A stretch of DNA of 62,580 nt, counting the filler, from Candidatus Fermentibacterota bacterium (GTDB taxonomy: Bacteria > JAFGKV01): assembly GCA_016928395.1 (NCBI GenBank). It is 8 parts of 8 records of this genome, joined end to end, with 100 filler letters (N's around TTAATTAATTAA, not from the genome) between each part and the next. Parts side by side here need not be neighbours in the genome. Positions count along the whole stretch, not along the records: positions 20,009 to 30,769 come from JAFGKV010000316.1; 7 more parts are not named here. One strand, 5' to 3'. The notes beneath the pieces were generated by a model. It was given only the letters and a program-made list of their open reading frames with translations, did not search any database and was not told where the DNA came from. A program made the position numbers and the translations under genes. Below, in pieces: positions 20,009-30,949 of this stretch (the stretch's first letter is position 1; each line of letters begins with the position of its first letter).

Positions 20009-20101
20009 ATCCCGGGGATCATCAAGACGGAGACTTCGATTCTGATGAGCTACGAAAAGCGAGACTACTACTGGGGCACCGCTTCAGACGAAAACGGTTA
20101 G
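20009..20101 (+). CDS. Lrp/AsnC regulator C-terminus (partial)
   Basis: IPGIIKTETSILMSYEKRDYYW* resembles the end of the AsnC ligand-binding domain. Confidence 0.55.
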   Translation: MPGIIKTETSILMSYEKRDYYWGTASDENG

Positions 20102-20328
20102 CAGCCTCCGGCAACGTGTCTGTTCAACTCAAAGATTAGCCGTTCCGGATCCTCAACTCCTTTCAAGGACAACAGCTCGCCAAGGCTGCCCCAAAACGGG
20201 TCTCCGCACTGGACGCATACTACACCGCGCTGAAGCAGCCAGTGCATCGCTTCGGGCCAAGTATCCACAATCCACTGGATCGGTGTCTCGGCGGTGATCG
20301 GTAGCTCCTGAGCCGCACTGTCAACCAT
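20098..20328 (-). CDS. DUF1858-domain small protein
   Basis: IT..TPI..IVDTWPEA...GVVCVQCG...SLGEL...KGV. Confidence 0.7.
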   Translation of the reverse strand: MVDSAAQELPITAETPIQWIVDTWPEAMHWLLQRGVVCVQCGDPFWGSLGELLSLKGVEDPERLIFELNRHVAGGC

Positions 20329-20445
20329 GCTTCGCCTCCCGACGCGCGTGTGGGATGCTCGGGGCTCGCCGTGGCGGGCCGTCCCACTTTTCGATTTTTT
20401 TTTCGCCCAAACTTCGGTTTTTCCACGATACTACCAACTCTTTCC

Positions 20446-20474
20446 TTGATTTCCGCAGTATGTGCCACTATAAT
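20446..20474 (+). promoter_or_regulatory. Sigma70 promoter of the methylamine operon
   Basis: TTGATT-17nt-TATAAT; RBS AAGGAGG before GTG 20512. Confidence 0.7.
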
Positions 20475-20511
20475 CAGAAAACAGAGTCACGTCGAGTCAA
20501 GGAGGGTTGTC

Positions 20512-22002
20512 GTGAAAGTAGTAATTCCGAAAGAACTGCTGGATAAGGCCAATCTGATAGGGGGGGTTTGGAGTAATGCAGAATCCGGGAAGACCTTCGA
20601 GGTTCAGAGCCCGGTGACGGGCGAGGTGATTGCCAAGGTCCCGCTCTGCGATACTGCGGATGTGGAAAAGGCCGTGCAGGCCGCCAGAAGAGTACGAGAC
20701 GAGTTCAAGGACACTCCCGTGCTGCGGAGAGTGGAGCTGTGCAACAGAATCAAGCAGCTCGTTCTGGAGAGGAAGGAGATCATTGCGAAGGTCATGACCC
20801 TGGAACAGGGGAAGCCCTGCGAGGGAGAGTCGATTCCGGATTTGGACGAAACCGCCCTGTTGTTCACGGACTTCGCCGAAGACATCGTCAGGCTGGAAAT
20901 GGACACGTATCCTCTGAAGGACCCAAACAAGATGGCCTTCTCGGTGCGCGAGGCGATAGGTGTGACTGCGGTGATCACTCCGTGGAACTACCCGGTGTTG
21001 ATCCCGGCGGAATACATCGCTCCTGCTCTTGTCGTCGGTAACCCGATCGTCTTCAAGCCCGCATCGTACACTCCCCTGTCGGCGATCCTGTTCGCGCGCT
21101 GCATTCAGGACGCTCTGGACGAGCTTGGGTTCCCCAAAGGGATCTTCAACTTGATCACGGGCCCCGGAGGCAGTGTGGGCAACCATCTGGTCGGTCACCC
21201 TCACGTGGACTGCATCGCGTTCACGGGGGAAACGGTCACAGGGCAGGCGATCTGCAGCCGTGCCGGACTCAAACGAACGCTCATGGAGCTCGGGGGCAAT
21301 GGCCCTCAGATCGTGTGTGACGATGCAGACCTCGCAAAAGCTGCCGCCGCTGCCGCCTTCGGCTGCTACACGAACGCGGGGCAGGTTTGCTGTGCAACGG
21401 AACGAATCCTGGTAGACGCGAGGGTCCACGACAAGTTCGTGAAGCTAATGCTCGAGGAAACGGAGAAATGGAAGGTGGGGGACCCATTTGACAAGAAGAC
21501 GAACGTGGGGCCTCTGAACAACGAGCCTACGGCCGCGAAGACGGAAACTCACCTGGACGATGCGGTGAAAAAGGGCGCCAGGATCCTGGTGGGTGGCAAG
21601 CGGGAATCCGGACGGCCCACCGGGTTGTACTTCCAGCCCACCGTCATCGACGGGGTGACCCCGAGCATGCTCCTGAACAAGGAGGAGACCTTTGGGCCCG
21701 TTGCTCCCATCATCAGCTTCGAGAGCGACGAGGAAGCAGTCCAGATCGCTAACGGCAGCGGGTACGGGCTGCAGATGGCGGTCTTCACATCCTCGATCAA
21801 GAAATGCTTCTTCTATTCCAAGAAGCTGAGAACCGGCACGATCGTGGTCAACGACACCACCGACTACTGGGAAGACCTGTATGTTCCTTTTGGTGGAGGC
21901 GGCGGGACCAAGAGCGGGCACGGTCGCATTGCCACCCATTTTACCATGGAGGATCTCACGTATATCAAGACGACGACCATTGATTTTGCCAACGCAAAGT
22001 GA
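20512..22002 (+). CDS. NAD(P)-dependent aldehyde dehydrogenase
   Basis: ITPWNYP, KPA, FTGE, MELGGN, NAGQVCCA, EETFGP. Confidence 0.95.
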   Translation: MKVVIPKELLDKANLIGGVWSNAESGKTFEVQSPVTGEVIAKVPLCDTADVEKAVQAARRVRDEFKDTPVLRRVELCNRIKQLVLERKEIIAKVMTLEQGKPCEGESIPDLDETALLFTDFAEDIVRLEMDTYPLKDPNKMAFSVREAIGVTAVITPWNYPVLIPAEYIAPALVVGNPIVFKPASYTPLSAILFARCIQDALDELGFPKGIFNLITGPGGSVGNHLVGHPHVDCIAFTGETVTGQAICSRAGLKRTLMELGGNGPQIVCDDADLAKAAAAAAFGCYTNAGQVCCATERILVDARVHDKFVKLMLEETEKWKVGDPFDKKTNVGPLNNEPTAAKTETHLDDAVKKGARILVGGKRESGRPTGLYFQPTVIDGVTPSMLLNKEETFGPVAPIISFESDEEAVQIANGSGYGLQMAVFTSSIKKCFFYSKKLRTGTIVVNDTTDYWEDLYVPFGGGGGTKSGHGRIATHFTMEDLTYIKTTTIDFANAK

Positions 22003-22026
22003 GAACAGAACACTAAGGAGGAGAGC

Positions 22027-23292
22027 ATGAAACGTGTCCTGTACGTAGGCCTGTTGCTGCTCGTAGGCGCGGCAGTCGTGTTCGCTGGGGGAAAGAAGGA
22101 GGCGCCGGCCGTGGAGGGAACCGCCGCGTCCGGAGTCGTCAAGATCGGCTTCCTGGCTCCACTTACCGGGGATGCTGCAGCTTGGGGGCTGCCCGGGCTC
22201 TATGGGGCGCAGATGTGGATGGAGGATGTCAACGCCGCGGGAGGAATCAAGGCCGGCGGCAAGTCGTACAAGGTCGAGCTCGTGACGTACGACGAGGAGA
22301 ACGTGGCCTCGAAGGCGTTGCTCGGGGCCAAGAAGTTGGTTCTGGAAGACAAGGTGGCGGTTGTGCTCATGATGGCGGGAGCCACGGTAACGGCCTGCCA
22401 GTCCTTCTTCACCGAGAACAAGGTTCTCTCGATGAGCCTGGCACCGTACGACACCAGGGCGGAAGCGCCGTACCACCTCTGTGCTGCGGAGCCGTCCCTA
22501 GTGTATCATCTCGCCTCAATCCCTTATATCGCGAAGACGTACCCCAACGTGAAGCGGGTGGCGATTGTCGCCCAAGATGACGAAATCGGCCGCCAGGGGC
22601 TTGCGTATCTGCGCGCTGCCTGCGAGTCCGCGGGCCTGCAGGTCGTGTACGACAAGTTCTACGGGTTCGAGACCACGGATTTCGCGCCGATCATGACGGC
22701 GATCCTCAATGCCAAGCCCGACCTGATCAGTTTCGACGGGGGCTATTCCTACTACGTCGAGCTCCTGGCCGAGCAAGCGTATCTGATGGGGTTCGAGGGT
22801 ATCATCGAGAGCTCGGAGTTCTTCCTCAGCTCGCTACTGGCGAAAGTCCCTGCAGACTGGGCCGAAGGCGCCGTGGCGTCCTTCGCCGACTGGGACGACC
22901 CGAAACTCCCGAAGTACTGCCACGATTTCTATGCGGAGTACACCCAGCGCTGGCCTGGGCAGTGGGGTGCGGTTTCCTGGGAGTACGCCGCCAACCTCGA
23001 CATCTGGAAGTTCGGAGTGGAGAGTGCCGACAGCATTGATCCCATGGAAGTCTTCAAGGCACTCAAGTCCGCCGAGACGATTCCGCACGTGTACGGTGAG
23101 GGTGTGTGGTCCGGCAAAGAGATCTGGGGCATCGACAACTTCCTGGCGACACCGTGGCACAACACGGAGGTCAGGAATGGGAAACACGTCATCGTGAACA
23201 CTCAGCCGATTCTCGGGTGGTTCTATCAACCAGGGAACAAAGAGATACTGCTCAAGCATCTGAAGGCGGCGGGTGTGTACTACGTGAAGTAA
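22027..23292 (+). CDS. Branched-chain amino acid-type ABC substrate-binding protein
   Basis: Signal peptide; VKIGFLAPLTGDAAAWG..VNAAGGI. Confidence 0.9.
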   Translation: MKRVLYVGLLLLVGAAVVFAGGKKEAPAVEGTAASGVVKIGFLAPLTGDAAAWGLPGLYGAQMWMEDVNAAGGIKAGGKSYKVELVTYDEENVASKALLGAKKLVLEDKVAVVLMMAGATVTACQSFFTENKVLSMSLAPYDTRAEAPYHLCAAEPSLVYHLASIPYIAKTYPNVKRVAIVAQDDEIGRQGLAYLRAACESAGLQVVYDKFYGFETTDFAPIMTAILNAKPDLISFDGGYSYYVELLAEQAYLMGFEGIIESSEFFLSSLLAKVPADWAEGAVASFADWDDPKLPKYCHDFYAEYTQRWPGQWGAVSWEYAANLDIWKFGVESADSIDPMEVFKALKSAETIPHVYGEGVWSGKEIWGIDNFLATPWHNTEVRNGKHVIVNTQPILGWFYQPGNKEILLKHLKAAGVYYVK

Positions 23293-23377
23293 GAGGCACC
23301 TGGTAGACAGTGCGCGGCCCGTTGGCCTGCAGCCAGAGTCATCGGCGTCTGCCGACGGGCCGCATCTGCTCCAAGCC

Positions 23378-24238
23378 ATGTCAATCATCCTGCAGACCTT
23401 GGTCAACAGCCTTATCACCAGCTCCTTCTACATGCTGATCGCAGTCGGGTTGACTCTCGTCTTTGGAGTGATGAACATCGCCAATTTTGCCCATGGCGAG
23501 TTCTACATGGTGGGAGCCTACACGGTCTGGCTTCTCTACAGTGTGGGAAAGATCCCTTTCTTTGTCTCCGTCCTCGTCGCACTTGTGGTGGTGTGTGCGA
23601 TAGGGGTCGTCGCCGAACGGGTCTTGTTTCGCCGAGTGTACGGCAATGTCCTCGGCGGCTTCATCATCTCGATAGGACTGGTGTTCATTCTACAGGTCCT
23701 GGTGGGTCAGATATGGGGCGTAGGCATGATGAAGCCGGTCCCCAAGGTCTTTCCCGGCTCGTTGAGCGTCCTTGGAATCAGTGTTGGCTGGCAGAGATTC
23801 ATCGTCGTCCCCTGCACTGGGTTCCTGCTGGCGGTTCTGTGGTTCTTTCTCGCCAAGACGAAGACGGGGAGGGGACTGCGGGCGGTAGCCCAGGATCGCG
23901 AAGCCGCGATTCTGCATGGGATCGACGTGAATCGGTGCTGTGCCGTCGCCATGGGCCTCGGCAGCGCCATGGCTGCGGCCGGTGGAGCCCTCATGGCTCC
24001 GATTGTTTCGGTGTACCCTTACATGGGGCACTCGGTGGTCTGGACCGGATTCGTTATCGTCATCGTGGGAGGGGCAGGCAACATCAAAGGCACGATCCTG
24101 TCCGCCCTGTTCTTCGGATTCCTGCACACCATCGTGGCGACGGTCCTTGACTCGACGATCGGGAATCTCGTAGGTGTGCTTTGCATGCTCATCATCCTGG
24201 CGATCAAGCCCGAAGGTCTCGCAGGTGAGAGGGAATAG
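23378..24238 (+). CDS. livH: ABC permease LivH-like
   Basis: GLTLVFGVMNIANFAHGEFYM; GRGLRAVAQD. Confidence 0.92.
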   Translation: MSIILQTLVNSLITSSFYMLIAVGLTLVFGVMNIANFAHGEFYMVGAYTVWLLYSVGKIPFFVSVLVALVVVCAIGVVAERVLFRRVYGNVLGGFIISIGLVFILQVLVGQIWGVGMMKPVPKVFPGSLSVLGISVGWQRFIVVPCTGFLLAVLWFFLAKTKTGRGLRAVAQDREAAILHGIDVNRCCAVAMGLGSAMAAAGGALMAPIVSVYPYMGHSVVWTGFVIVIVGGAGNIKGTILSALFFGFLHTIVATVLDSTIGNLVGVLCMLIILAIKPEGLAGERE

Positions 24239-25226
24239 CGCTTCCCTGCCCATTACGCTGATCTCCTGGATCGCCGTCATCGCGGTCTTTCTTGTCCTCC
24301 CCTTTGTCGTCGGTCCGTATCTGCTGGAAGTGATGATCATGCTCCTCATCAACATCGTGGTCGTGGCCAGCTTCCGGCTCATTACCATGACCGGGGGGTG
24401 GTCGCTGGCTCACATCCCCTTGGTCGGGGTCGGCGCCTACTCGGCGGCCCTTCTGTCGAAGCACTTCGGGGTCTCGTTCTGGCTGAACCTTCCCCTGGGA
24501 GGATTGACTGCCGCGTTTGTTGCCGCGGCGATCTGCTATCCGCTGCTGCGCATGAAGGGCTTCGCGTTCTTCATCGGCTCTTTTGCGGCCGGCGAAGCCA
24601 TCCGCTTGTGCTGGATCCGTTTCCGCAATCCCTTCGGCGGTCCGCGGGGGCTGATCGACATAGCCGGTGCGGGAAGCCTTCGGGTGGCCGGGCTGTTCTC
24701 CTTGAATCTGGATTCCGGGATTCCGTTCTACTTCCTGACAGTCCTGGTCACGCTGATTTGCCTATACCTCATGCACCGGCTGGGCGATTCCCGCATAGGC
24801 GTCACCCTCGAAGCGATTCATATCCATGACAATCTGGCGAAGAGTCTGGGGATTCCGGTCACGAAATACCGGGCCCTTGCCTTCATTGCAGGCGGCTTTT
24901 TCGCCGGGGTGGCCGGCGCGATGCTCGCTCACCGCTTGCGAACTATCGATCCGCATCAGTTCGGGTTCACCACGACGCTGTACCTGCTGCTTTGGGCAAT
25001 CGTCGGCGGCACGACCACGTTCGCGGGCCCGCTGCTGGGCATTGTTGCTCTAACGGCAATCGGAGAGCTGATACGGCGGTTCAGCGAGTGGGTGCCCCTG
25101 ATCTATGGCGTCATTCTGATTGTTGTGGTTCTCTTTTTCCCGCAGGGGCTCGAGAGTCTTCCCGCGCGGATTCCGTTCTTGCTGAAGAAGTACGGGATCG
25201 CCCAGAAAGGGAAGCCGAGAAAATGA
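24225..25226 (+). CDS. livM: ABC permease LivM-like
   Basis: GGWSLAH..GVGAY; AIVGG...GPLLG; FFPQGL; probable GTG start at 24225. Confidence 0.9.
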   Translation: MRGNSASLPITLISWIAVIAVFLVLPFVVGPYLLEVMIMLLINIVVVASFRLITMTGGWSLAHIPLVGVGAYSAALLSKHFGVSFWLNLPLGGLTAAFVAAAICYPLLRMKGFAFFIGSFAAGEAIRLCWIRFRNPFGGPRGLIDIAGAGSLRVAGLFSLNLDSGIPFYFLTVLVTLICLYLMHRLGDSRIGVTLEAIHIHDNLAKSLGIPVTKYRALAFIAGGFFAGVAGAMLAHRLRTIDPHQFGFTTTLYLLLWAIVGGTTTFAGPLLGIVALTAIGELIRRFSEWVPLIYGVILIVVVLFFPQGLESLPARIPFLLKKYGIAQKGKPRK

Positions 25227-25269
25227 CCCACAGGGGCAACCGAGGCGTGATGGAGGGCGGACTGCAGAG

Positions 25270-26028
25270 ATGGCCCTGTTAGAGCTGGCAGGTCTCACCA
25301 AACGTTTCGGTGCCCTGGTTGCCGTGGACGAGTTGAACGTCTCCATCGAAAGGGGGGAGATTCGGGGACTGATCGGCCCGAACGGCTCCGGCAAGACCAC
25401 GGTTTTTAACCTGGCCACCGGCTTCTACAGGCCGTCGGCCGGACGAGTCCTATGGCAGGGCGAAGACGTCACGCTCTTGTCCCCGGAACGCAGAGCGAAA
25501 TTGGGCATCATCAGGACATTTCAGCAAGCAGCCCTTTTCGGCGAGATGACAGTGGTGAACAACGTGATCGTGGCCTGTCATCTTCATCTGGACGTCGGGC
25601 TTGCGGGTCAGTTCTTGAAAACCCCCAAGATGAGAGCCGTCCAGAGAAGGATCGAGGCCAGGGCTGACGAGATCCTGGAATTGATGGGGCTTCTCGAGGT
25701 GAAGCACGAAGTCGCGGGCGATCTGCCTCACGGTTCGCAGCGTGTCTTGGGCATCGCCATGGCGCTGGCGTCGCAGCCGCAGCTCCTGCTGCTCGATGAA
25801 CCGGCCGCAGGCATGAATCCGGTGGAGACCGAGCGCTTGATGTCGATCATCCGTATGCTGCGCGACAAGGGAACAACGATGTTCCTGGTGGAGCATGACA
25901 TGAAAGCAGTCATGAGCACTTGCGACAGAATCACGGTCATGGACTTTGGGCAAGGGATCGCGGAGGGTACGCCGCACGAGGTTGCAAAGAACGCTGCGGT
26001 TATCGAAGCGTACCTCGGCGGGGGATAG
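25270..26028 (+). CDS. livG: ABC ATPase LivG-like
   Basis: GPNGSGKTT, LLLDEPAAG, VEHDM, VIEAYLG. Confidence 0.93.
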   Translation: MALLELAGLTKRFGALVAVDELNVSIERGEIRGLIGPNGSGKTTVFNLATGFYRPSAGRVLWQGEDVTLLSPERRAKLGIIRTFQQAALFGEMTVVNNVIVACHLHLDVGLAGQFLKTPKMRAVQRRIEARADEILELMGLLEVKHEVAGDLPHGSQRVLGIAMALASQPQLLLLDEPAAGMNPVETERLMSIIRMLRDKGTTMFLVEHDMKAVMSTCDRITVMDFGQGIAEGTPHEVAKNAAVIEAYLGGG

Positions 26029-26031
26029 GCT

Positions 26032-26736
26032 ATGCTGCGCATAGAGAATCTTGTCGTTCACTACGGGGGAGTCGCAGCGCTAGACGGGATATCCCTGGAG
26101 GTCGAAGAGGGGAGCATCGTCACCCTCATCGGAGCGAACGGTGCCGGCAAGAGCACCTGCCTCAAGGCGGTATCCGGTCTCGTGAGGCCGACCTCCGGCG
26201 AGATCTGGTTTCAGGGCACACGCATCGACGGTATGAAACCGCAGCGAATCGTGAAGATGGGTATCGTGCAGGTTCCTGAAGGGCGCAGATTGTTCCCGTA
26301 CATGAGCGTCTTTGACAATTTGCTGACGGGGGCTCATCTCCGAAAGGACCAGGAGCAGATTGCCCGCGATTTGGACGGGGTGTACCGGTACTTCCCGATC
26401 TTGCTAGAGAAGCGCAAACAGGCCGCCCGGAGCCTGAGCGGCGGGCAGCAGCAGATGGTTGCGTTCGGCCGCGGGCTCATGGCCCACCCGAAGGTGTTTC
26501 TCTTTGACGAGCCGTCACTCGGCTTGGCGCCGATGCTGGTGCGGGAAGTTGGAGAGCATATCAGGCAGCATGCAGAGGAAGGATACACGATCGTGCTGGT
26601 GGAACAGAACGCGAACTTGGCCCTCGCGCTGGCGGACCGGGCGTACGTTCTGGAAAGAGGAAGAATCGTCCTGGAAGGAGCCGCCAAAGAGCTTCGGGAC
26701 AACGAATACGTGAGGAAGGCGTACCTCGGCATATGA
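26032..26736 (+). CDS. livF: ABC ATPase LivF-like
   Basis: GANGAGKST, VPEGRRLF, LSGGQQQM, DEPSLGLAP, VEQN. Confidence 0.93.
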   Translation: MLRIENLVVHYGGVAALDGISLEVEEGSIVTLIGANGAGKSTCLKAVSGLVRPTSGEIWFQGTRIDGMKPQRIVKMGIVQVPEGRRLFPYMSVFDNLLTGAHLRKDQEQIARDLDGVYRYFPILLEKRKQAARSLSGGQQQMVAFGRGLMAHPKVFLFDEPSLGLAPMLVREVGEHIRQHAEEGYTIVLVEQNANLALALADRAYVLERGRIVLEGAAKELRDNEYVRKAYLGI

Positions 26737-26781
26737 TCGTGCTGTCGGCGAAGCCGGGCATGCAGCCGTCCGGAGGCGAAT

Positions 26782-28206
26782 ATGAAGGGTGACAAGATAC
26801 TGACCCGCATGGGTGACGGCGAACGTGTATGGATGGCGATCGAACAGGCCAGGGAGGACGTGGCTCTGGGCAGTCAGGACGCGGGGAAGAAGGGCAACAT
26901 CGCGGAACTGTGCGCCGAGGATCAGGAACGGCTGCTGGCGATCCTGGCCGAGCCCGGACGGATCGTGAGCGTCAGCCCCGGCGAAGAAGTGGTTGTCACT
27001 GACGACGGCGCTGCGCTCATTCTCTGCAGCGGCTCAACGGACGGCGGGTCCGGACTGGCGATCGACCGCCAGCCCGCGATCTTGGCCTACGAGCGGACCT
27101 TCGCCCCCGATACGGTCTCCACGGGGATTCATGACTACAGCTTCAAGCCGGTCAAGGCGATCATGAGCAATGAGCGCCAAGCCTACGCTTCGACGGTTCT
27201 CTTGACGACTGCACCGCTGTTCTACGGTTCCCAGCCCAACCTCGGGTTGTACTTCCAGCCCGACGGGCCTCATCCCAACCCCGCGGAGCTGCTGCCGAAG
27301 GGTGACGTTCAGGGTGCTCGGCAGTCGCAGGAGGAAGCGGCAGCCCACCTTACCAGAGACATGGTGTTCGTCGGAGAGAGCCTCTACGAGATGGGGTGCG
27401 AGGGGCTCAATTTCGACACAGCCGGATCAGCCGGCGATGCCGATTTTTATGCCGCCCTGATGGCGATTGAGCAGCTCAAGATGTCGGCGCCAAACATGGC
27501 GATCGAGGTCGGCATGGCGGGGGAGTTCGTCCTGGGGATGCACGGGCAAATCGTCTATCGCGGCGAGCGCCTGGCCGGCATGTTCCCCCATCAGCAGGTC
27601 AAGATGGCCGAGGCGGCGGGGGCGGACATCTTCGGCCCTGCGGTCAACGTGAACACTTCCCGTTCGTTCGCGTGGAATCTCGCTCGGGCCGTGACCTTCG
27701 TGAAGGCCACGGTGGAAGCTGCCGGGATTCCCGTGCACGCCAATGTCGGCATGGGGGTGTGCGGTGTTCCGATGTGCGTGGAAACCCCGATCGACTGCGT
27801 TACGCGAACCACGAAAGCCCTGGTGCAGATTGGGAAGATCGATGGGTTGTAGCTGGGCGTAGGGGACGCTTTCGGGATGCCCCTGGCGCATATCATGGCT
27901 GCAGGCATGGGAGGCATCCGGACTTCCGGAGATCTGGTGGCCTGGATGCAGATGCGACGAAAGATGCGGATTGCCGAAGCCAAGCGGTATGTGGCGAAAA
28001 ACCTGGGCATAGACCTGATCGACTTGACGAACGAGGAGGTCATGTACCAGCTGCGGCAGGATCTGGGAATAGGAGTGGTGACCGGGGTGCCAGGAGACCC
28101 GGAAGGAATCGTGGCAAAGTGCAGGATTGCCCAGCTGCTGGGGATATCCATCAACTCCGTCGATCGCTTTGTATCGAGTCTGTCGTTCTTGAAGGGAAGT
28201 CAATAG
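26782..28206 (+). CDS. mtbB: Dimethylamine:corrinoid methyltransferase MtbB, 474 aa, with pyrrolysine (TAG) at codon 357 (27850-27852)
   Basis: RMGDG, DYSFKPVK, PLFYG.QPNLGLY..PDGP, NFDT...GD.D, WNLARAVTF; DGL*LGVGD aligns with methanogen DGI(O)IGVGD; homology continues in frame (MPLAHIMAAGMGGIRTSGDLVA). Confidence 0.93.
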
Positions 28207-28224
28207 AGGGGAGCTGACCGGAGC

Positions 28225-28872
28225 ATGCTTTCAGACGACCTGATCGAGCGCGCCAATCAGACGGTTCTCGGCTTTGACACACAAGGTGCCGTCGCTCTCG
28301 TCGAAGAGCTCATCTCCTCCGGAGGAGATCTCCTGGAATTGATGGACAGGGCCTACATCCCCGCAATCGGTGAGATCGGCGAGCGCTTCAGCTGCGGGCA
28401 GGTGTTTCTGCCGGAGCTCATTCAAGCGGCCAACGTGATGAAAGCGGTCACGGAAATGGTGAGCCGGGCCTTACCCAAAGAGGCGACGAGGCCCGCAGGG
28501 GCAAAGTTCGTCATCGGTACCGTCGAGGGCGATATCCACGACATCGGGAAGACCCTGGTCGTGACCCTGCTCGAGGTGCACGGCTTCACGGTCTATGACC
28601 TGGGAAGAGACGTCAGCTCCAAAAGACTCATCGCGAAAGCAGTCGAAGTGGATGCCGGCATCATCGGAACGAGCGCCCTGCTGTCTACCACAATGGAGAA
28701 ACAGAAAGAGCTCGTGCAGGCGCTCACGAAACCCGAATACAAGGGGCGCTTCAAGACGATGGTCGGCGGTGCTCCGGTGACGCGCCGTTGGGCCGAGAGG
28801 ATCGGAGCGGACGGTTACGGCGAGAATGCTCACGAGGCGGTGGTGAAGGCGAAGGAGCTTAGCGGCCCGTAG
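28225..28872 (+). CDS. mtbC: Cognate corrinoid protein
   Basis: FLPELIQAA; GTVEGDIHDIGK (DxHxxG B12 motif); SALLSTTM; VGGAPVT..WAERIGADGY. Confidence 0.92.
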   Translation: MLSDDLIERANQTVLGFDTQGAVALVEELISSGGDLLELMDRAYIPAIGEIGERFSCGQVFLPELIQAANVMKAVTEMVSRALPKEATRPAGAKFVIGTVEGDIHDIGKTLVVTLLEVHGFTVYDLGRDVSSKRLIAKAVEVDAGIIGTSALLSTTMEKQKELVQALTKPEYKGRFKTMVGGAPVTRRWAERIGADGYGENAHEAVVKAKELSGP

Positions 28873-29014
28873 GAGCCATCCGGCGGATGTCAAGACCGCT
28901 CGCCGCGACGCCGCCATCCTGCCCGCAGCGGGGGCGCCTTCGCCAGTTTCCATATCGAAATCACGAATTATGCAAGGAAGACCGCTTTCAATTTCGAAAT
29001 ATGCGATGGAATAC

Positions 29015-29043
29015 TTGAGTATTCTTGAATTACGTACTAAGGT
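29015..29043 (+). promoter_or_regulatory. Possible internal promoter in an AT-rich gap
   Basis: TTGAGT-17nt-TAAGGT. Confidence 0.4.
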
Positions 29044-29102
29044 AGGAGTGAAATAACGCTATCTCCAGCGGCCAAGCGTGCCTGCACCGAGGAGGTTCGA
29101 TC

Positions 29103-30302
29103 GTGAAGATTGCGGTATTGGGAGGGGCGGGCCTGATGGGCTCGGGGACCGTGCGAGATCTGGTTTCCCGGGAATCCGCTGGAATCGACCGGGTGATCGT
29201 AGCAGACATAGACCTGGACAAGGCGCGGCGGCTTGTCGATAGCCTCGGTGACAAACGGCTGGAGCCAGCCCGCCTAGACGTTCGGGATCGCCGGAGCTGC
29301 CTGGCGGTTCTGAAGGCAGTGGACATCTGCATCAACGGCGTACCTACGTTTGCGGGATTTCAGATGGACATCTTCCACTGCTGCCTGGAGGCCAAGTGCC
29401 ACTACATTGACTTCGGCGGAATGGGGATCTACACACCCCAGCAGAAAGCCGAGCACGACGCTTGGAGCCGAGCCGGGGTGACCGCGATCCTGGGCCTGGG
29501 GTCCGACCCCGGCATGTCGAATGTACTGTGCAAGGCCGTGGCGGAACAGCTGGAGGAGATCGACAAGATCAGTCTCTATTGGGCGTCGAAGTTGGTGGGT
29601 GACGAGAATCCGGTACTCGTGCCTCCGTACAGTATTTCGACGCTGCTCGGGGAATACGCCAACAACAGCAAGCAATTCATAAACGGCGAGCTTGTGGACA
29701 AACCACCGCTCAGCGGAGAGGTGTCTCTCGTGCTGCCGCCGCCCTTTGGCCAAACCGAGTTCGTGCATTCGCAGCATTCGGAACCGCTCACCGTTCCCTT
29801 CGCCAAGGGAATCAAGGACAAGGGGATCAGAGAATTCACCTGGCGTCTCCATCTCCCGGAGAAGGAACATGAGGTGTACAAGAGTCTCGTCAAAGTAGGA
29901 TTCGGGGAGTTTGCCGTTCCGATCGACTTTAGAGGCATGAGCGTCGCGCCCGCCGAGTTCCTCGAGGCTCTGATCGCCCGAAACATCGAGAGGAACCGGC
30001 ACAGGATCCCCCACCAGGATGCCTACGAGATCCACCTGGCCATCGGCGAAGGCAGAATGAACCGCAAGAAGACCACCGTGCAGTGCATGGTTTTCGTGGC
30101 TCCGGATCCGTTCTACACAGACTACAACGATGCGGCTACTTCGATGAACGCCTCGATTGGAGCTCAGCTCCTGGGACGACCGAAGCCAGTTCCCGGCGTA
30201 TGGGGGCCGGAGGAATACTACAATGTACAGGAATACTTCTCGGAACTAAAGAAGAGGCACTTCAAGATTACTCTCGCGGTGACAACGGAAGAGGAACTCT
30301 AG
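29103..30302 (+). CDS. Saccharopine dehydrogenase / lysine 6-dehydrogenase-family oxidoreductase
   Basis: MKIAVLGGAGLMG Rossmann fold; HYIDFGG; GLGSDPGMSN; HSEP; PGVWGPE. Confidence 0.85.
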   Translation: MKIAVLGGAGLMGSGTVRDLVSRESAGIDRVIVADIDLDKARRLVDSLGDKRLEPARLDVRDRRSCLAVLKAVDICINGVPTFAGFQMDIFHCCLEAKCHYIDFGGMGIYTPQQKAEHDAWSRAGVTAILGLGSDPGMSNVLCKAVAEQLEEIDKISLYWASKLVGDENPVLVPPYSISTLLGEYANNSKQFINGELVDKPPLSGEVSLVLPPPFGQTEFVHSQHSEPLTVPFAKGIKDKGIREFTWRLHLPEKEHEVYKSLVKVGFGEFAVPIDFRGMSVAPAEFLEALIARNIERNRHRIPHQDAYEIHLAIGEGRMNRKKTTVQCMVFVAPDPFYTDYNDAATSMNASIGAQLLGRPKPVPGVWGPEEYYNVQEYFSELKKRHFKITLAVTTEEEL

Positions 30303-30430
30303 CCGGTCCGAGGCCTTTCGGTCGGGGGGTACTCGGGCCGCAGACCTCTCACCCCCATCTCGCCGGGGTTTCACCTTGACATTCCTGCACGCCTCCACTC
30401 TCATAGACAATCAGGGCACCGCCTAGAAAC

Positions 30431-30769
30431 ATGGACTACCGACTGTCCAAGTCCAAGTATCTCACCGGCCTGAACTGCCTGAAGGCGCTCTGGCTCACGA
30501 TCCGCGATCCGGGCAAGGCCGCTCCGCCCTCGCCCGCCCAGGAGTACATCTTTGCGCAGGGCACGAGGGTCGGGCTCGTGGCCCAGGAGTGCTTCCCTGA
30601 GGGGGTTCTGGTGGCCGCACCCTCGTACCAGGCTCCTGCTGCCCTGGCGGAGACCCGGGCGCTCGTAGCCGGAGGGGTGCCGGCTGTGTTCGAGGCCGCC
30701 TTCTTCCACGATAACATCCTGGTGCGGGTCGACGTGCTGCGCCGCTCGGCCGAGGTCGGGCACGATGCC
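30431..30769 (+). CDS. DUF2779-associated PD-(D/E)XK-like protein N-terminus (partial)
   Basis: LSKSKYLTGLNCLKALWL..G..VG..A...FP.G..FEAAF..RVDVL. Confidence 0.7.
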
Positions 30770-30949
30770 NNNNNNNNNNNNNNNNNNNNNNNNNNNNNNN
30801 NNNNNNNNNNNNNTTAATTAATTAANNNNNNNNNNNNNNNNNNNNNNNNNNNNNNNNNNNNNNNNNNNNGAGATAGGTGCGCTGTCCACCAGCGAGCGGT
30901 GCGCCGGAGACGGGCGCGGGAGCGCCGACGTCGGAGGCGTCAGCGTGAG

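Follow-up and report, generated by a model that had tools for sequence, protein, structure and literature searches.

A pyrrolysine-type mtbB gene with an in-frame TAG on a contig of a candidate-phylum bin in which no pyl gene was found

The DNA analysed (the window, 62,580 nt) is not one locus. It consists of eight contigs (C47–C52, C54 and C60) of the Candidatus Fermentibacterota bin G000, joined with N spacers. ORFs listed across the spacers, for example 30431–30817, were rejected as artefacts of joining. The bin amounts to 4.79 Mb in 343 contigs, with 94.2% completeness and 3.0% contamination. The mtbB gene is located on contig C50 (window 20009–30769, 10.8 kb), where all genes lie on one strand in the order regulator fragment, aldehyde dehydrogenase, Liv-type importer, mtbB, corrinoid protein and saccharopine-dehydrogenase-like enzyme (Table 1).

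Table 1. Features of contig C50, in window coordinates
Feature	Position	Strand	Basis or remark
Probable AsnC/Lrp-type regulator, 3' end	20009..20101	+	Cut by the start of C50; 48% over 29 aa to the C-terminus of the regulator in locus L060, E 0.02 (weak)
Aldehyde dehydrogenase, 496 aa, GTG start at 20512	20512..22002	+	PF00171
Liv-type (HAAT) solute-binding protein with N-terminal FAGGKKE signal motif	22027..23292	+	PF13458
Liv-type ABC importer, two permeases and two ATPases	23378..26736	+	PF02653 (twice), PF00005 (twice)
mtbB, dimethylamine:corrinoid methyltransferase family, 474 codons with one TAG read through	26782..28206	+	PF09505, TIGR02368
In-frame TAG, codon 357, at the pyrrolysine position of the family	27850..27852	+	Column alignment to relatives
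Rfam PYLIS_2 (RF02509, mtbB) match, beginning on the TAG	27850..27949	+	66.9 bits (gathering threshold 36), model 1–100 of 100
Corrinoid (B12-binding) protein, probable methyl acceptor	28225..28872	+	PF02310 and PF02607
Saccharopine-dehydrogenase-family oxidoreductase, 399 aa	29103..30302	+	PF03435 and PF16653; in the PDB, weakly similar to carboxyspermidine dehydrogenase
Unrelated, G+C-richer ORF truncated at the contig end	30431..30769	+	Without Pfam or NCBIfam match; final 260 bp with G+C 0.72

The regulator fragment presumably belongs to the AsnC/Lrp family. The aldehyde dehydrogenase gave KauB and succinate-semialdehyde dehydrogenases as its best PDB sequence matches, and none of the 25 NCBIfam families shown for it scored above its own cut-off. 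The permeases and the binding protein have no paralogue in genome G000. For the corrinoid protein, the best NCBIfam models were NF041607 (MtbC) and TIGR02370, both under cut-off; the MtbC models are archaeal. A 70% relative of the oxidoreductase bears the automatic name lysine 6-dehydrogenase. The region of the ORF at the contig end is covered by short contigs of depth 11–19 in sequencing run X1. This ORF may be a DUF2779 protein; a profile search with PF11074 matched nothing, controls included.

Two gene runs on other contigs of the window were also noted. On C54 (55100–59280, minus strand), a DNA polymerase III alpha gene overlaps an ImpB/MucB-family gene, in the arrangement of an imuB-dnaE2 mutagenesis cassette. 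On C51 (31228–39500, plus strand), Ser/Thr kinase, PEGA, FGE-sulfatase-like, TonB-C and VWA genes lie in one run.

Translation of 26782–28206 on the plus strand gave 474 codons, with the TAG at codon 357 as the sole internal stop (context IGKIDGL*LGVGDAF). In a Pfam scan of the two ORFs, the upstream part matched PF09505 at positions 4–353 and the downstream part at 356–461, collinear and in frame. This agreed with the sequence-only reading, which had described a 356-aa ORF ending at the TAG and homology running on in frame to 28206. A PF09505 search of the genome returned a single match, 4–461 of 463, with one TAG inside. The read-through protein scored 519.4 bits against TIGR02368 (cut-off 369.1), and MtbB forms were searched within 261–832 residues. 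An open frame of 117 or more codons behind a terminal TAG is not rare by itself, being found here for 174 of the 961 TAG-ended long frames. A chance open frame was nevertheless ruled out, because the downstream part matches the family (E 1.9e-42). The splitting of the gene by standard gene callers, also proposed earlier, was borne out by the 119 other homologues listed, of which 118 cover 71–75% of the read-through query.

Relatives of the gene were compared in 84 loci, namely the best 80 of 282 metagenome hits and four genome loci. Eighty of these loci provided 86 copies across the aligned column, and all 86 have TAG there; the other four loci are cut before it. After the TAG, 79 copies run for 110–121 codons to a stop, six leave the contig and one (L083) is broken. 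The TAG was also present in all eight named-genome loci, from a Myxococcota MAG (64% identity), a deltaproteobacterial MAG (62%) and six Methanomassiliicoccales (48–49%). The codon had been said to occupy the pyrrolysine (Pyl) position of methanogen MtbB. The named loci, six of them methanogens, placed it there and the curated family models agreed; a misalignment with the Pyl column, raised beforehand as a possible refutation, was seen in none of the 86 copies.

The part of the gene behind the TAG appeared to be maintained. Mean identity to the window protein was 60% before the TAG and 66% after it (78 copies), and five close relatives had no excess of amino-acid change behind the codon. No close homologue with a sense codon was found among the 86 aligned copies or the 120 proteins listed. 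This suggested that no ordinary residue serves at position 357. At the level of the gene, we conclude that C50 almost certainly carries one intact Pyl-type mtbB.

The sequencing runs were inspected around the codon. Run X1 contains 99% of the sampled words, and about 56% of it was inspected. Among the pieces listed from four runs, none spans 27850, and no other letter appears there in the 40 rows listed. Run X2 differs behind the TAG at 27919 and 27924; both differences are silent and may stem from other organisms. No RNA run was among the listed sources of the sequence; RNA run X3 contained one exact 155-nt piece of the corrinoid gene, which may be DNA and was not counted.

An AlphaFold model of MtbB, built from 44 sequences (pLDDT 82.8), showed a TIM barrel over about residues 66–380. 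Its best fold match was the homocysteine domain of MetH (Z 18.4, rmsd 3.5, 250 aligned residues). A sequence search found no solved MtbB structure, and MtmB and MttB were absent among the fold matches listed. Residue 357 falls in the last predicted barrel strand (355–358). A stop at 357 would cut this strand, so that the 356-aa product is predicted to be incomplete. The RF02509 match probably represents coding conservation, because folding of 27850–27960 was no better than that of shuffled sequences (z −0.03). A stable PYLIS hairpin thus gained no support from folding, although the score lies above the threshold.

The sequence-only reading had held that the host of this contig uses the 22nd amino acid. 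This was not supported for the bin: the near-complete G000 yielded no pyl gene, an outcome that the reading itself had named as speaking against it. In profile searches of G000, the best scores were 21.7 bits for pylSc (cut-off 178) and 24.2 bits for pylB (cut-off 348), and pylC, pylD and pylSn gave no match. Each of these protein models scored above cut-off in a Methanosarcina control. When the Pyl proteins from both of the closest named relatives were searched against G000 by tblastn, one weak synthetase paralogue was the only match. ARAGORN listed 45 tRNAs in G000, tRNA-Sec among them (contig C59:4177–4274), and none with a CUA anticodon at the normal threshold. Seven CUA candidates obtained at low threshold were rejected for their lack of resemblance to pylT. 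No pylT was found in G000 by ARAGORN, by blastn or with a covariance model. The covariance model, made from nine bacterial pylT, detected the positive control G035 at 84.9 bits, and it detected none in G000, in its two relatives G001 and G002, or in G094 (see below).

The earlier reading had also stated that pylT, pylS, pylBCD, MT2 and RamA are absent from the window. No tRNA and, by Pfam, no such family was present in its 33 ORFs, so the statement stood as far as it went. Its reach is limited to the 10.8 kb of C50, because the window is made of eight separate contigs.

The candidate phylum comprises three genomes. In the other two, which are 82% and 98% complete, no mtbB, pylSc or pylT was found. 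The sole MttB of G000 has no internal stop, and there is no second amber methyltransferase. A TGA inside the MttB match of G002 was dismissed, since it lies upstream of the gene start. A non-Pyl MttB and a corrinoid activator are native to all three genomes, and the lineage of the bin could therefore use an acquired methyltransferase. The same pair suggests a supply of methyl groups for methionine from a methylated amine. On contig C73 (L034:83–3020), genes for a corrinoid protein, a homocysteine-methyltransferase-like protein and the non-Pyl MttB stand in a row.

How often an amber mtbB occurs apart from pyl genes was estimated from 301 genomes of the class of the deltaproteobacterial relative. 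Eighteen of them contain mtbB, in 45 copies with one TAG each, and pylSc is present in 17 of the 18. The remaining genome (G094) has mtbB and neither pylSc nor pylT. An amber mtbB without pylSc is thus the exception. Both genomes that hold the closest named mtbB have pylSc and tRNA-Pyl. Pyl genes were found inside 11 of the 80 metagenome loci, a set with many short members. In L056 (69% mtbB), pylT, pylSc, pylB and pylSn adjoin mtbB-mtbC.

Further features of these loci were recorded. The pyl cluster of L056 (4182–6080) has an apparent frameshift in pylSc; its pylB is open for 320 codons up to a TAG, and another 20 codons follow without a stop. Tandem divergent amber mtbB paralogues (about 49% and 64–70% to the window gene) precede mtbC in L042, L048, L051, L053 and L056, often behind a polyamine-type ABC importer, which hints at different substrates. 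In L041, L046, L049 and L050, close mtbB copies adjoin genes that resemble those for amidinotransferase, carbamoyltransferase and carbamate kinase; one of these neighbours was scanned in Pfam and had no family at 1e-6.

We interpreted the lack of pyl genes in the bin as a consequence of misbinning. C50 most likely derives from a Pyl-using, spirochaete-like sediment bacterium, in which the gene would encode a working Pyl-MtbB; we hold this statement, taken as a whole, with moderate confidence. The earlier claim of pyrrolysine use may then still apply to the true owner of C50.

Comparison with the two kin genomes gave matches to C50 only in the corrinoid gene; the binding protein had no match there, and the saccharopine-dehydrogenase-like enzyme one marginal match. 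The control contig C49 matched the kin genomes over most of its length and carries the repeats of the bin. C50 has none of these repeats, as is also the case for 16 of 113 contigs of 7–16 kb. In composition it is mildly odd only, ranking 11th of 342 pieces with a G+C of 0.598 (bin 0.622 ± 0.011), and at third positions nine of the ten C50 gene stretches lie inside or at the edge of the 5–95% range of the genome. A lack of homology to kin would also be expected of an acquired island, and this counts against misbinning.

The nearest named relative of the binding protein is Spirochaetes bacterium HEB31681.1 (70%), followed by Desulfobacterales proteins at 47–49%. The FAGGKKE signal motif is of a type that we take to be spirochaetal. 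Its pattern occurs in two long ORFs of G000, one each on C50 and C137; C264 has a similar motif, and the same type is present in L038, L039 and L042, which hold close mtbB relatives. L042 is 84% identical to the pyl-bearing L056 over 3.7 kb. For MtbB itself, the near clusters contain Olavius delta-1 (68% cluster), Spirochaetota HEB31660.1 (67% cluster) and a Planctomycetota fragment. In a quick tree without bootstrap, the gene formed a long branch within a clade of 39 rows, a Myxococcota copy among them, and the tree did not place it. The saccharopine-dehydrogenase-like enzyme has no named close match, C50 carries no marker gene, and the ends of C50 gave no blastn overlap with other contigs and no matching regulator N-terminus. 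With two named proteins and the signal motif as its basis, the origin is probably spirochaete-like.

By tetranucleotides, the three nearest contigs to C50 are C244, C137 and C264. These are peptide, sugar and TRAP uptake operons with little or no homology to kin. C137 (L037), C264 (L128) and C244 (L127) are likely further foreign contigs, two of them with spirochaete-type signal motifs, and C244 ends in a URO-D family (MT2-like) gene. The strongest composition outlier of the bin is C109 (L129), which has no shared repeats; its genes include one for a type VI secretion/phage baseplate OB-domain protein, besides several unnamed ORFs.

Among the alternatives, a stranded gene survived best, and it is still unlikely. 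The operon would truly belong to the candidate-phylum genome, as a recent acquisition from a donor resembling spirochaetes, and the pyl cassette would not have come with it. UAG357 would then be a stop that leaves a 356-aa barrel without its last helix and C-terminal domain, and the other operon genes may serve. That no pyl gene was found in the genome, 94% complete, or in its kin is as expected from this, and so is the mildness of the compositional difference. TAG is also a usual stop here, ending 687 of the 1937 long ORFs in the bin and five of the nine C50 genes; the frequency itself was not weighed either way. High TAG use does not exclude Pyl, according to the part of 10.1101/2024.09.30.615893 consulted, and this was counted against a stranded gene. 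So were the absence of decay behind the TAG and the absence from C50 of all repeats of the bin. The same operon was, moreover, present at 96–100% identity in at least eight pieces of run X2, which comes from another study and another habitat. This suggested that the operon is a real, maintained sequence.

Somewhat less probable is that the organism of the bin owns the operon and uses Pyl, with the pyl cassette in the unassembled or unbinned part. The assembly, with its 343 contigs and about 6% incompleteness, leaves room for this; one of the 18 mtbB genomes elsewhere (G094) is likewise without pylSc and pylT, and the bin has a native corrinoid activator and a homocysteine methyltransferase-like partner. 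On the other hand, all six pyl genes must be missing together, which is possible since they are clustered. Neither relative, one of them 98% complete, has mtbB, pylSc or pylT, and the only methyltransferase of this kind besides MtbB is the MttB without internal stop. In its full form, with C50 truly in the three-genome phylum, an unassembled cassette, the first Pyl user of the phylum and a lone MtbB in an N-methylated amino acid pathway, this reading is slightly more doubtful again.

Very improbable is a TAG read by a non-Pyl suppressor or by leaky read-through, or a 356-aa product that works alone. The finding of mtbB but no pyl gene in a nearly complete bin would fit. At the normal threshold, however, no CUA tRNA was present, the seven low-score candidates did not resemble pylT, and no sense-codon homologue was listed; the shortened product would lose part of its predicted last barrel strand. 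Equally improbable is the extreme form of Pyl use by the phylum, in which the TAG is read without any pyl gene. An error of sequencing or assembly, or a nonsense mutation that arose recently, is the least credible explanation: no listed read or contig piece spans 27850, but the same codon is TAG in 86 of 86 copies and 8 of 8 named relatives, and the Rfam mtbB element starts on it.

MtbB proteins carry pyrrolysine inserted at the in-frame amber codon and act in methyl transfer. In the misbinned-contig reading preferred here, tRNA-Pyl would read UAG357 in the true host and thereby set Pyl on the last TIM-barrel strand. The enzyme is predicted to bind a methylated secondary amine, by family dimethylamine, and would transfer one of its methyl groups to the corrinoid protein of the neighbouring gene, in the Co(I) state. 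According to PMC9842639, MtbB demethylates dimethylamine and hands the methyl group to the corrinoid protein that is its partner, and in MtmB the Pyl residue lies at the barrel centre. No gene for a downstream methyl acceptor is on C50.

The neighbouring genes suggest a pathway for a methylated amino acid. The importer may bring in an amino acid or amine that is N-methylated. The C-N bond of this compound may be cleaved by the saccharopine-dehydrogenase-like enzyme to an aldehyde and dimethylamine, and the aldehyde dehydrogenase may oxidise the aldehyde while MtbB harvests the methyl group. This proposal draws on the names of relatives, PDB matches and gene neighbours, a thin support. The best PDB matches of the aldehyde dehydrogenase act on amino- and semialdehydes. 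In the loci of relatives, an aldehyde dehydrogenase neighbours mtbB in one distant case (L061, 35%), and saccharopine-dehydrogenase family members are near mtbB in 5 of 80, at only 24–26% identity.

At 28204–28227, the terminal TAG of mtbB is followed after 18 nt by the corrinoid gene in the same frame, with no other stop. Read-through could therefore give some MtbB-MtbC fusion protein. This was rejected: the passage is open likewise in two of 29 relatives (L048 and L051 only), in frame in 11 of 29 and TAG-ended in 7 of 29, about what chance would give.

Pyl-MtbB in bacteria is already published and common, and the window gene adds one more copy to a known family. In 2007, the Olavius delta-1 symbiont was reported to have six Pyl-MtbB copies together with a complete pyl set (PMC1976440), and in 2021 marine Deltaproteobacteria with an in-frame-Pyl dimethylamine methyltransferase were described (PMC8318568). 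A PylRS survey counted 81 bacterial genomes, one of them a spirochaete (PMC9630628), and truncation at Pyl was linked to missed annotation (PMC10653893). Among the papers listed for pyrrolysine and spirochaetes together, none had Pyl-MtbB in spirochaetes as its subject; the lineage may be named in the genome list of PMC9630628.

The case calls for caution: use of Pyl by a binned organism does not follow from the presence of an amber mtbB in its bin. Taken at face value, C50 would have given a new phylum a Pyl trait, probably by misbinning. The case also draws attention to spirochaete-like bacteria of sediments that have both mtbB and pyl genes, a group that the literature found hardly covers. 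Their operon layout suggests that the methyl group is taken from a methylated amino acid and not from free dimethylamine.

Compared with known systems, the window gene resembles MtbB1–3 of Methanosarcina barkeri and the Methanomassiliicoccales MtbB in its full-length match over cut-off, its single TAG in the same column and its adjoining corrinoid protein. The Methanosarcina comparison is based on curated models and methanogen loci. It differs from the methanogen genes in being bacterial and in its surroundings, which lack MtbA, a methylamine permease and pyl genes and consist of two dehydrogenases and an importer of the amino-acid type.

The non-Pyl MttB superfamily (MtgB type), of which the bin has one member on C73, shares with it the expected corrinoid-dependent N-demethylation by a TIM-barrel enzyme. 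MtbB is a separate family, with no sense-codon form among its close relatives.

The remaining comparisons are with bacteria. The mtbB genes of Olavius algarvensis delta-1 (PMC1976440) and of marine Deltaproteobacteria (PMC8318568) are likewise bacterial, with an in-frame Pyl codon and split by gene callers. Named delta/Myxococcota copies are 62–64% identical to the window MtbB, and the delta-1 protein is in the 68% cluster. The delta genomes carry pylTSBCD, often with several mtbB/mttB copies, whereas G000 has one mtbB and no pyl gene. Among named proteins, those of Spirochaetota are closest to the binding protein (70%) and to one MtbB cluster (67%); in spirochaete-like loci, pyl genes adjoin mtbB-mtbC. 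C50 differs from L038, L042 and L056 in its G+C (0.60 vs 0.48–0.52) and in its importer and dehydrogenase set.
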